From a virus (taxonomy: Duplodnaviria; Caudoviricetes), in the IMG/VR virus record IMGVR_UViG_3300028767_000022, positions 1 through 61,450 of that record: a stretch of DNA of 61,450 nucleotides. One strand, written 5' to 3'. This document shows positions 54,770-55,151 of this stretch, piece after piece. Made by a program: the position numbers and the translations under genes. The notes beneath the pieces were generated by a model that was not told where the DNA came from, did no database searches, and saw nothing but the letters and a program-made list of their open reading frames with translations. Numbering within the stretch: position 1 is the first letter of the stretch; each line of letters opens with the position of its first letter.

Positions 54770-54967
54770 GTTTTAAAACCCTACCAGGGCTAATTGAATA
54801 GACAGGCGGCTTTGATATGATCTCTGCTCCTGACCTGGTAGGTACGTTCTAAATTATGCAGACATTAAGCCCACATAATTGTTGATTTGGATTGTTTTTG
54901 TGCCAGTTATCTAGCGTGTGCAGTCCTATCCATATTCAGCGGACGCCAATCAATACTTTGCACCCCC
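54770..54967 (-). ncRNA. ssrA: Two-piece tmRNA, coding piece (3' end approximate)
   Basis: 5' GGGGGTG acceptor strand; resume context ATAACT-GGC; tag ORF 54904-54854 GTKTIQINNYVGLMSA*; pairs extensively with 55118-55151. Confidence 0.85.
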
Positions 54968-54981
54968 GTGTTTTATTAGCG

Positions 54982-55084
54982 CTCTCATGGTGGGGCTCAA
55001 ACCCACAACTTCCAGGTACCTAATTTGCATTAGGCTCTTTAAATTACTTAGCCTGGTCCGCTATTCAGTTGCGGCACATGAGAG
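54982..55084 (-). ncRNA. tRNA-like RNA with a 35-nt expanded anticodon loop, nested in the tmRNA intervening segment
   Basis: CTCTCATG/CATGAGAG acceptor, CCGC/GCGG D-stem, CCAGG/CCTGG stem, GTGGG-TTTGAGC-CCCAC T-arm. Confidence 0.8.
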
Positions 55085-55087
55085 TTT

Positions 55088-55151
55088 TGGTGGAGGTGGG
55101 GCTTTCGAGGTCCCGTCTTGCTCGTCATAAATACAGCCTAACAGACCGTAC
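55088..55151 (-). ncRNA. ssrA: Two-piece tmRNA, acceptor piece (5' end approximate)
   Basis: ...GAC-GGGAC-CTCGAAA-GCCC-CACCTCC-A-CCA; forms a 7-bp acceptor stem with G3.U70 against 54967-54961. Confidence 0.85.

Follow-up and report, generated by a model that had tools for sequence, protein, structure and literature searches.

The tmRNA locus

The window analysed here is the whole of a 61,450-base IMG/VR record (IMGVR_UViG_3300028767_000022) with an estimated completeness of 63%, and the element under study is a predicted gene for a transfer-messenger RNA (tmRNA), the RNA that frees stalled ribosomes, encoded in two pieces in permuted order. The carrier genome is that of a crAss-like phage (Crassvirales): Pfam searches returned CrAss_Ring_1 (E 1.1e-89) and the muzzle protein crAss_MUZ (E 2e-194), and the best matches of the ring protein were those of cr50_1 (47%) and cr10_1 (46%), both Suoliviridae. 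The tmRNA gene is housed in a 475-nt gap on the minus strand between the open reading frames (ORFs) 55155-55679 and 54296-54679, and the stop codon of the upstream ORF lies 3 nt ahead of it. On this strand the acceptor half, with its CCA end at 55088, comes first and the 5' half, which begins with GGGGGTG at 54967, comes second. The anatomy of the gene, its family membership, the covariation within the family and the conservation of the tag frame were computed here. The features are listed below in the order of the minus strand, R1 being a covariance model of the family and L404 a sister contig that are both described in the following sections.

55088..55151, minus strand: acceptor piece, from the sequence, the Rfam alignment and the R1 alignment (2 non-standard pairs only, both in the T-arm)
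55151-55144, minus strand: outer-helix strand GTACGGTC (RNA GUACGGUC), in the acceptor piece
55144-55137, minus strand: conserved loop motif CTGTTAGG (RNA CUGUUAGG), in the acceptor piece
55136-55128, minus strand: helix-2b strand CTGTATTTA (RNA CUGUAUUUA), in the acceptor piece, followed by U
55126-55123 and 55120-55118, minus strand: helix-2a strands GACG and CAA, with AG between them and GAC after CAA
55114-55099, minus strand: T-arm GGGAC/CTCGAAA/GCCC, degenerate
55098-55092, minus strand: acceptor 3' strand CACCTCC, followed by the discriminator A (55091) and an encoded CCA (55090-55088)
54968..55087, minus strand: intervening segment of 120 nt, presumably excised, containing a tRNA-shaped cloverleaf
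54981-55083, minus strand: the cloverleaf, made up of an acceptor stem of 7 bp, D-arm, T-arm, and an anticodon arm with a 28-nt insertion
54905..54967, minus strand: 5' part of the coding piece, from the sequence, Rfam and R1; top match of the family hidden Markov model (HMM) at 54966-54901
54967-54961, minus strand: acceptor 5' strand GGGGGTG, followed by the D-loop analogue CAAAGUAUUGAU
54949-54947 and 54945-54942, minus strand: helix-2a strands TTG and CGTC, with G between them and CGC after CGTC
54938-54930, minus strand: helix-2b strand TGAATATGG (RNA UGAAUAUGG), in the coding piece
54929-54925, minus strand: conserved motif ATAGG, in the coding piece
54924-54918, minus strand: outer-helix strand ACTGCAC, in the coding piece
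54917-54905, minus strand: 13-nt spacer with AUAACU at its end, leading from the outer helix to the resume codon
54904-54854, minus strand: tag frame with the resume codon GGC (54904-54902), 16 codons (GTKTIQINNYVGLMSA) and the stop codon TAA (54856-54854), called by ARAGORN -ps80 and shared with L404
54852..54880, minus strand: helix 5, AAUUAUG (54880-54874) with CAUAAUU (54858-54852), from the fold of 54680-54885
54700..54851, minus strand: 3' domain of the coding piece, with a long hairpin of CCUACCAGG (54842-54834) and CCUGGUAGG (54788-54780), then a branched element
54706-54770, minus strand: the branched 65-nt element, in which CCCUA...UAGGG closes two hairpins; it is not in L404

The acceptor stem pairs at 7/7 positions, G3.U70 included, and the discriminator A and the CCA are in place. 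Helix 2b has 9 bp with 3 G.U pairs, and the outer helix contains one C.A mismatch. The two halves, their coordinates and all the pairings that the initial annotation of this DNA had claimed are present on the minus strand. The T-arm, which it had called atypical, has 3-4 pairs, two of them flagged as non-standard. It can be drawn with 3 G-C pairs and a C-G pair with a bulged A, or with 3 pairs and 2 mismatches, and the UCGAA core is retained. Pseudoknot 1 (PK1) is missing, as had also been claimed, since the 13 nt between the outer helix and the resume codon leave no room for it. The resume context GAUAACU-GGCA lies at its family-typical place, and the earlier call of a GGC resume codon with a 16-codon tag held up. 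Helix 5, a 7-bp hairpin, takes in the stop codon and the tag codons just before it; it is in the usual helix 5 place, as in other members of the family.

Membership in the crAss-like phage tmRNA family

The family to which this gene was compared is already known from public annotations and one supplementary table. RefSeq annotates a 'transfer-messenger RNA, SsrA' at 26352-26737 of cr10_1 (NC_055875.1), with the same annotation in cr50_1, cr60_1, cr114_1 and cr125_1 (Suoliviridae), and Table S1 of PMC9004378 gives 'Permuted' for cr115_1, cr114_1, cr10_1, cr50_1, cr273_1 and cr272_1. The locus is hence not the lone 'independent, minimal permutation' that had been proposed; it has a large family around it. 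Our literature search found no paper on the structure or biology of this family, the available parts of PMC13503771 and PMC12291355 included.

A pattern search with CTGTTAGG, GACG, TCGA and CTCCAC recovered 86 viral-contig loci, many on contigs of ~100 kb, which together with cr10_1, cr50_1 and the window make 89 copies. Downstream, 87/89 contain a strand exactly complementary to the acceptor 3' strand and with G at position 3; the two exceptions, L223 and L241, are cut by contig ends. There are 58 unique sequences in the set, with ten different acceptor stems among them. The structure was examined in 15 members aligned with MAFFT, the window being left out. The RNAalifold consensus has 21 pairs, distributed over acceptor stem, T-arm, helix 2b and outer helix, and both partners vary in 14 of them. 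Pairing was found in 99% of the cells of this alignment, compared with 43-58% in slid controls, and 0/500 shuffles reached any of the five measures. G3.U70 is kept in 15/15 members, and helix 2a was also found in all 15, in two registers (9 vs 6). Between the outer helix and helix 2b lies a conserved asymmetric loop, CUGUUAGG facing AUAGG, in which the first C-G and U.G pairs are invariant. The spacing from the outer helix to the GGC or GAC resume codon is 13-16 nt across the family, and the missing PK1 is therefore a family trait. Tags run from 10 to >20 residues, as in GNFYVTDYTRIAA and GNNFVTDYTQLAVA (environmental tags were read by eye); in the Suoliviridae genes annotated in RefSeq they have 13-16 residues, with G or D at the start and A at the end, as in the window.

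Ten family members, not including the window, went into the covariance model R1, which has 167 positions and 21 pairs. With a calibration that is rough by the tool's own statement, it matched 54917-55148 on the minus strand over model positions 1-167 of 167 with 46.4 bits (E 2.7e-8), the runner-up in the 61 kb scoring 13.4 bits. Sequence-only HMMs from the 57 other unique family members were searched against the entire window. The top match of the coding-piece HMM was 54966-54901 (E 0.0017), and 55147-55104 was the second-best match of the acceptor-piece HMM (E 0.3), after the T-arm of a tRNA-Arg; both of these lie at the tmRNA locus in the correct order and on the correct strand. The window gene also shares the family motifs CUGUUAGG, AUAGG and GAUAACUGGCA. 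Judged by these sequence comparisons, the window gene is a divergent new member of the crAss-like phage tmRNA family, and the earlier claim of a circularly permuted tmRNA in a crAss-like phage is borne out by the R1 match and the two Pfam matches. Loss of G3.U70, of the pairing or of the tag frame in homologues, which had been raised as a possible objection, was not seen, as all are kept in the family or in L404.

Compared with the Suoliviridae tmRNAs, the window gene has the same order of acceptor piece, intervening segment and coding piece, the same G3.U70, outer helix, CUGUUAGG/AUAGG loop and helices 2b and 2a, and the same short spacer without PK1 and stop codon within helix 5. It differs in its tag, which is unrelated apart from the general shape, in its longer 3' domain, in being missed by standard finders and in its habitat, which is peat where theirs is the gut. 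The encoded CCA is found in the window only, a discriminator followed by CCA being present in 0/57 other unique family copies. Its acceptor stem, GGGGGUG/CACCUCC, is shared by just two other copies of the family set, L224 and L232.

Among seven crAss-like loci, ARAGORN at default settings called five permuted, and cr55_1 and cr1_1 gave a tRNA-Lys only. In cr55_1 (L193) and cr1_1 (L194) the similarity to the cr10_1 tmRNA gene, at 73-75% identity, is confined to its 3' half. The matched 3' half in these two phages takes in the adjoining tRNA-Lys, and an HNH endonuclease gene lies alongside; the tmRNA gene may be truncated or disrupted in both. A RAGATH-9 RNA (RF03146, 97 bits, cut-off 75.2) was seen at L191 3377-3555, on the minus strand, ~1.1 kb upstream of the cr10_1 tmRNA.

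A sister contig with the same tag module

Scanning metagenome contigs with the 3' half of the tag gave one locus, on the 93,139-base contig L404. It is 86% identical to the window over 160 nt, from GAUAGG (54930) to 54771, lacks 54706-54770, and matches at 24/24 bases beyond that gap. ARAGORN at default settings calls a permuted tmRNA on L404 with the tag GNNTIQINNYVGLMSA, and R1 scores 74.1 bits. The tag frame is the same, with 14/16 residues identical to the window and both tags ending in GLMSA; 4 tag codons differ, 2 of them synonymously (Tyr TAT/TAC and Val GTG/GTA) and 2 changing residues 2 and 3. The L404-type variant was also seen as a 151-nt contig in run X16. Downstream of the gene synteny is kept, the phosphoesterase being 69% identical over 51 aa, whereas the upstream gene of L404 is unrelated to that of the window.

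The two genes agree in the outer-helix strand and in AUAGG. The rest of the tRNA-like part differs: L404 has a canonical T-arm (GAGGG UUCGAUC CCCUC) and GG in the D-loop, where the window has a degenerate T-arm and AG; its acceptor stem is GGGGCUG/CAGCUCC without an encoded CCA, compared with GGGGGUG/CACCUCC with CCA; its intervening segment has 19 nt and no cloverleaf, against 120 nt with one; and CCCGUAGG stands in place of CUGUUAGG. Upstream of GAUAGG the tRNA-like block of the window is only 48% identical to L404, and its best family match is 58% (L224). Acceptor pair 5-68 is switched between C-G and G-C in the two genes (by eye), and helix 2a is GCCGUU/AGCGGC in L404 and GACG..CAA/UUG.CGUC in the window, both strands having changed (by eye). 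The divergent block is contiguous in the gene, and all inter-piece helices still pair via two-strand changes, which argues for continued selection on the fold.

From the sequence, two histories fit the divergent block: a module exchanged with a lineage outside the sample, or rapid co-evolution between the halves of the gene. A mosaic origin is a tentative proposal that we lean away from: the tRNA-like module ~55143-54931 would have been swapped or remodelled as one contiguous block, bringing with it the CCA, the cloverleaf and a rewired T-loop/D-loop corner able to work with host SmpB and EF-Tu. In a check for recent import, the alpha-type class of phage two-piece tmRNAs described below gave only a 36-nt match around the T-arm/acceptor, 89% identical to L148 and L164, and the family gave at best the 58% of L224.

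Detection by standard tools and folding tests

With default settings for ARAGORN and gathering thresholds for Rfam, only tRNAs were reported over the window and the tmRNA gene was missed. Rfam models for two-piece tmRNA are RF01849-51 and RF04321; RF00023, RF01849, RF01850 and RF01851 gave no match at E<=10 on 54400-55500. RF04321 (tmRNA_permuted) gave a full-length match at 54854-55147 with 31.6 bits (E 2.2e-4; 1.1 kb, all families), and ARAGORN -ps80 called a permuted tmRNA with the identical tag, misplacing the 5' tRNA domain. The check with these two tools that the initial annotation had put forward was thus negative at the default and gathering levels and positive with -ps80 and at the E-value level. 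Diverged members of the family escape standard finders.

A number of results weigh against reading the locus as a tmRNA gene. The 31.6 bits of RF04321 stay below its gathering score of 47, when cr10_1 reaches 49.6 bits, and the gene falls below the default score of ARAGORN. RF04321 also gave 20.8 bits (E 8.6e-4, one genome) at 11414-11523 on the plus strand, at the start of a 4754-aa ORF. This match is probably due to chance, and because of it the RF04321 E-values look generous on this DNA. The model further gave E<=10 matches in 14/14 control genomes, archaea among them, so that, given these and the match in the giant ORF, the RF04321 match alone is suggestive only. In co-folding energy the two pieces do not stand out from shuffles (z -0.12; 201/500 as low). 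The tmRNA-like two-piece fold is nonetheless the co-fold minimum free energy (MFE) structure, at -33.5 kcal/mol, if the acceptor piece begins at 55152, which speaks for the tmRNA reading; when 2 bases are added at the 5' end, the outer helices face competition from a local hairpin. In the L404 variant the Tyr codon change leaves an uncompensated C.A mismatch in helix 5. The T-arm of the window has 3-4 pairs and a 3' side 1 nt shorter than in the 57 other unique family copies (by eye), and the GG that the family has in the D-loop analogue is replaced by AG. R1 run on the nearest relatives G001-G004, three of them less than half complete, gave no match that held up. The 3' domain, by contrast, does stand out from shuffles when folded over the 54680-54885 region (z -2.51, 4/200 equal or better).

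The sub-threshold scores, the shuffles that fold equally well and the RF04321 matches in all control genomes would be expected if a chance tRNA-like arrangement flanked a tRNA gene and the tag were a random open frame. Chance does not account for a full-length R1 match at E 2.7e-8, for the shared family motifs, or for L404, which joins the same tag module to a canonical tRNA-like domain. We give this explanation next to no weight; the R1 match to the window and the R1 and ARAGORN calls on L404 effectively refute it.

The degenerate T-arm and altered D-loop, together with the lowest R1 score of any correctly aligned copy (46.4 bits, compared with 74-141 elsewhere) and a tRNA-like block at 48% identity to L404 next to a tag block at 86%, speak for a decaying or repurposed copy. 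Its tRNA-like domain would then be past charging or past delivery by EF-Tu and SmpB, and the locus would be a pseudogene, or would make a non-tagging RNA that titrates SmpB or hinders the host tmRNA. There is a precedent, as a tmRNA-like RNA of mycobacteriophage DS6A without a coding sequence is reported to have inhibited endogenous tmRNA in E. coli (PMC11915505). However, the acceptor stem pairs throughout and keeps G3.U70, the discriminator A and the CCA are present, helices 2a and 2b and the outer helix still pair despite two-strand changes relative to L404, and tag frame, resume context and helix 5 are intact; random decay is not expected to keep these. We consider a decaying or non-tagging derivative unlikely, and leave it some weight because the T-arm and D-loop corner is impaired.

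The intervening cloverleaf

The 120-nt segment between the two pieces contains a cloverleaf that the initial annotation had overlooked. ARAGORN -i reports it as 'tRNA-Leu(aag)' at 54981-55083 with a 28-nt intron in the anticodon loop, and it is the MFE fold of the segment (-34.4 kcal/mol, z -3.27, 0/200 shuffles as good). The Rfam tRNA model gave no match to it even at E<=10, and the ARAGORN fold reads as a nominal anticodon AAG with A34, U37 and a short variable loop unlike that of tRNA-Leu. With no Rfam match and this odd anticodon context, a decoding tRNA is rejected for now, and the cloverleaf is treated as a tRNA-shaped element and not as a proven decoder. Its 5' end lies 4 nt from the CCA of the acceptor piece, and 14 nt separate its discriminator from G1 of the coding piece.

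Nested tRNAs occur elsewhere in the family, namely a tRNA-His in cr114_1, L237, L249 and L274 and a tRNA-Arg with a 55-nt insertion in L207 and L219, and a T-arm-like hairpin was found in 11/57 family intervening segments. One of 98 alpha-type phage loci, L077 (7-nt-loop class), has a nested tRNA as well, a tRNA-Arg. The simplest reading is that the nested elements would recruit RNase P and 3'-end enzymes, whose cuts would free both tmRNA pieces. The cloverleaf of the window, with its expanded anticodon arm, may be a built-in RNase P/Z processing handle.

A second tRNA of the window, at 56504-56601 on the minus strand (RF00005, 43.2 bits), has 31 nt in place of the 7-nt anticodon loop, including a CCGUUUUAACGG hairpin. 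This tRNA, the nested cloverleaf and the tRNA-Arg of L207 and L219 together suggest that short anticodon-loop insertions in tRNAs recur in crAss-like phages. No paper combining crAss-like, tRNA, anticodon loop and intron was found in our literature search.

Comparison with other tmRNAs and origin of the family

Two-piece tmRNAs are known from Alphaproteobacteria, a betaproteobacterial lineage, cyanobacteria and marine phages such as Melnitz, and ARAGORN judged 53/133 unique phage tmRNAs to be two-piece, according to PMC9004378; this commonness among phages had also been overlooked. In viral contigs at least 98 loci hold canonical permuted tmRNAs with the acceptor letters of the window, CACCUCCACCA and GGGGGUG. 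The crAss muzzle protein was found on 0/50 tested contigs of the alpha-type class, with a positive control of 4/4. The window gene shares the circular permutation with the alphaproteobacterial, betaproteobacterial, cyanobacterial and marine-phage RNAs, whose precursor is thought to be cut by tRNA-processing enzymes (PMC9004378), as is presumed for the window. Those RNAs have a hairpin or PK1 before the tag and tags of the ANDN type, whereas the window gene lacks PK1. A number of alpha-type phage loci, L134, L136, L137, L141, L142, L145, L147, L148 and others, have a 6-nt T-loop (UUCGAA), and intervening segments in this 6-nt class go down to 10-27 nt.

Bacteroidota, the presumed host phylum, have a one-piece, unpermuted tmRNA with the usual pseudoknots. 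Its tags as called by ARAGORN have 9-10 residues and end in ALAA or AMAA (GENNYALAA, GETNYALAA, GENTYALAA). They start with Gly and often contain NNY, and the window tag likewise ends ...INNYVGLMSA, closing on GLMSA instead of ALAA. These different ends leave room for a tmRNA that works but serves mainly for something other than degradation tagging, one that may rescue ribosomes yet spare or redirect the tagged products; L404 also ends in GLMSA, and other family tags end in IAA, LAA, AVA or IGA. The terminal Ala and the hydrophobic tail are retained, however, and we regard such a role, which we infer from the tag ends only, as very unlikely.

The family profile of the 5' tRNA-like part matched 6/120 bacterial one-piece tmRNA loci at E<=0.01, and 6/6 of these are Bacteroidota by title; as the 120 loci had been selected by T-arm pattern, the test is weak. 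It is consistent with a Bacteroidota origin of the family, separate from the alphaproteobacterial, betaproteobacterial and cyanobacterial permutations, which we consider plausible on the sequences. The T-arm pattern was also tried as a donor marker in bacterial genomes and rejected, as the family T-arm is common to many phyla and names no donor.

Relatives, habitat and neighboring genes

All DNA-type runs containing the locus (22/22) are labelled peat metagenome; 4 of these may be the source sample, and all may come from one campaign. Exact or near-exact DNA of the locus had no match in the phages collection, the 23-nt T-arm/acceptor string had none in viral_contigs, and the family pattern with the 9-nt spacing of the window had none in metagenome_contigs. 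On the five nearest crAss relatives in IMG/VR, G001-G005 (ring protein 55-42% identical), no RF04321 match held up, and a weak R1 match in G003 proved to be a tRNA-Glu. Absence of the gene from G001-G005 is not established by this, because most of these records are fragments. No relatives of the 174-aa ORF or of the phosphoesterase were found in viral_contigs, and searches of G001-G003 for the phosphoesterase and the 444-aa ORF gave no match. Elsewhere in the window two giant ORFs lie side by side on the plus strand, at 11368-25632 (4754 aa) and 25654-34116 (2820 aa). Pfam gave a single match in them, DUF7831, which lies towards the C-terminal end of the 4754-aa ORF and scores just below the cut-off.

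Proposed mechanism

Taking these results together, the locus is probably a working two-piece (permuted) ssrA gene that uses host AlaRS, SmpB and EF-Tu. Transcription, processing sites, charging, use of SmpB, tagging and any benefit to the phage are what we infer from the computed features. A single minus-strand precursor would be made, probably co-transcribed with the upstream ORF. RNase P and 3' trimming enzymes would then cut at the nested cloverleaf and the tRNA-like domain, giving an acceptor piece of ~64 nt with its CCA end at 55088 and a coding piece whose first base is G54967, and the acceptor stem and helix 2 would hold the two together. Host AlaRS would charge this RNA via G3.U70 and the discriminator A, host SmpB and EF-Tu would deliver it to stalled ribosomes, and translation would resume at GGC 54904, appending (A)GTKTIQINNYVGLMSA. 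A search of the record, 63% complete, gave no SmpB gene, and the use of host SmpB and AlaRS suggested by the initial annotation is therefore a reasonable reading.

A scan for sigma-70 promoters and terminators, with a tool that has no Bacteroidota promoters, found none above shuffle expectation. In the RNA library of run X23 there was one 151-nt contig at depth 2, covering 54754-54898. It is not taken as a sign of transcription or processing, because DNA is possible in RNA libraries and contigs cannot show ends. Parts of the locus had no coverage in runs X19 and X21, which is given no meaning here.

Implications

The window gene extends the range of the family to an environmental (peat) crAss-like phage. 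Together with L404 it indicates that the tRNA-like module and the tag module can have separate histories, whether by evolution or by exchange. If the mosaic reading is true, crAss-like phages shuffle tmRNA modules, perhaps matching or escaping host factors. The recurring tRNAs and tRNA-shaped elements within the excised segment suggest how the precursor is cut. With a shared tag module and different tRNA-like domains, the window gene and L404 form a natural pair for probing what a minimal, PK1-less tmRNA needs.

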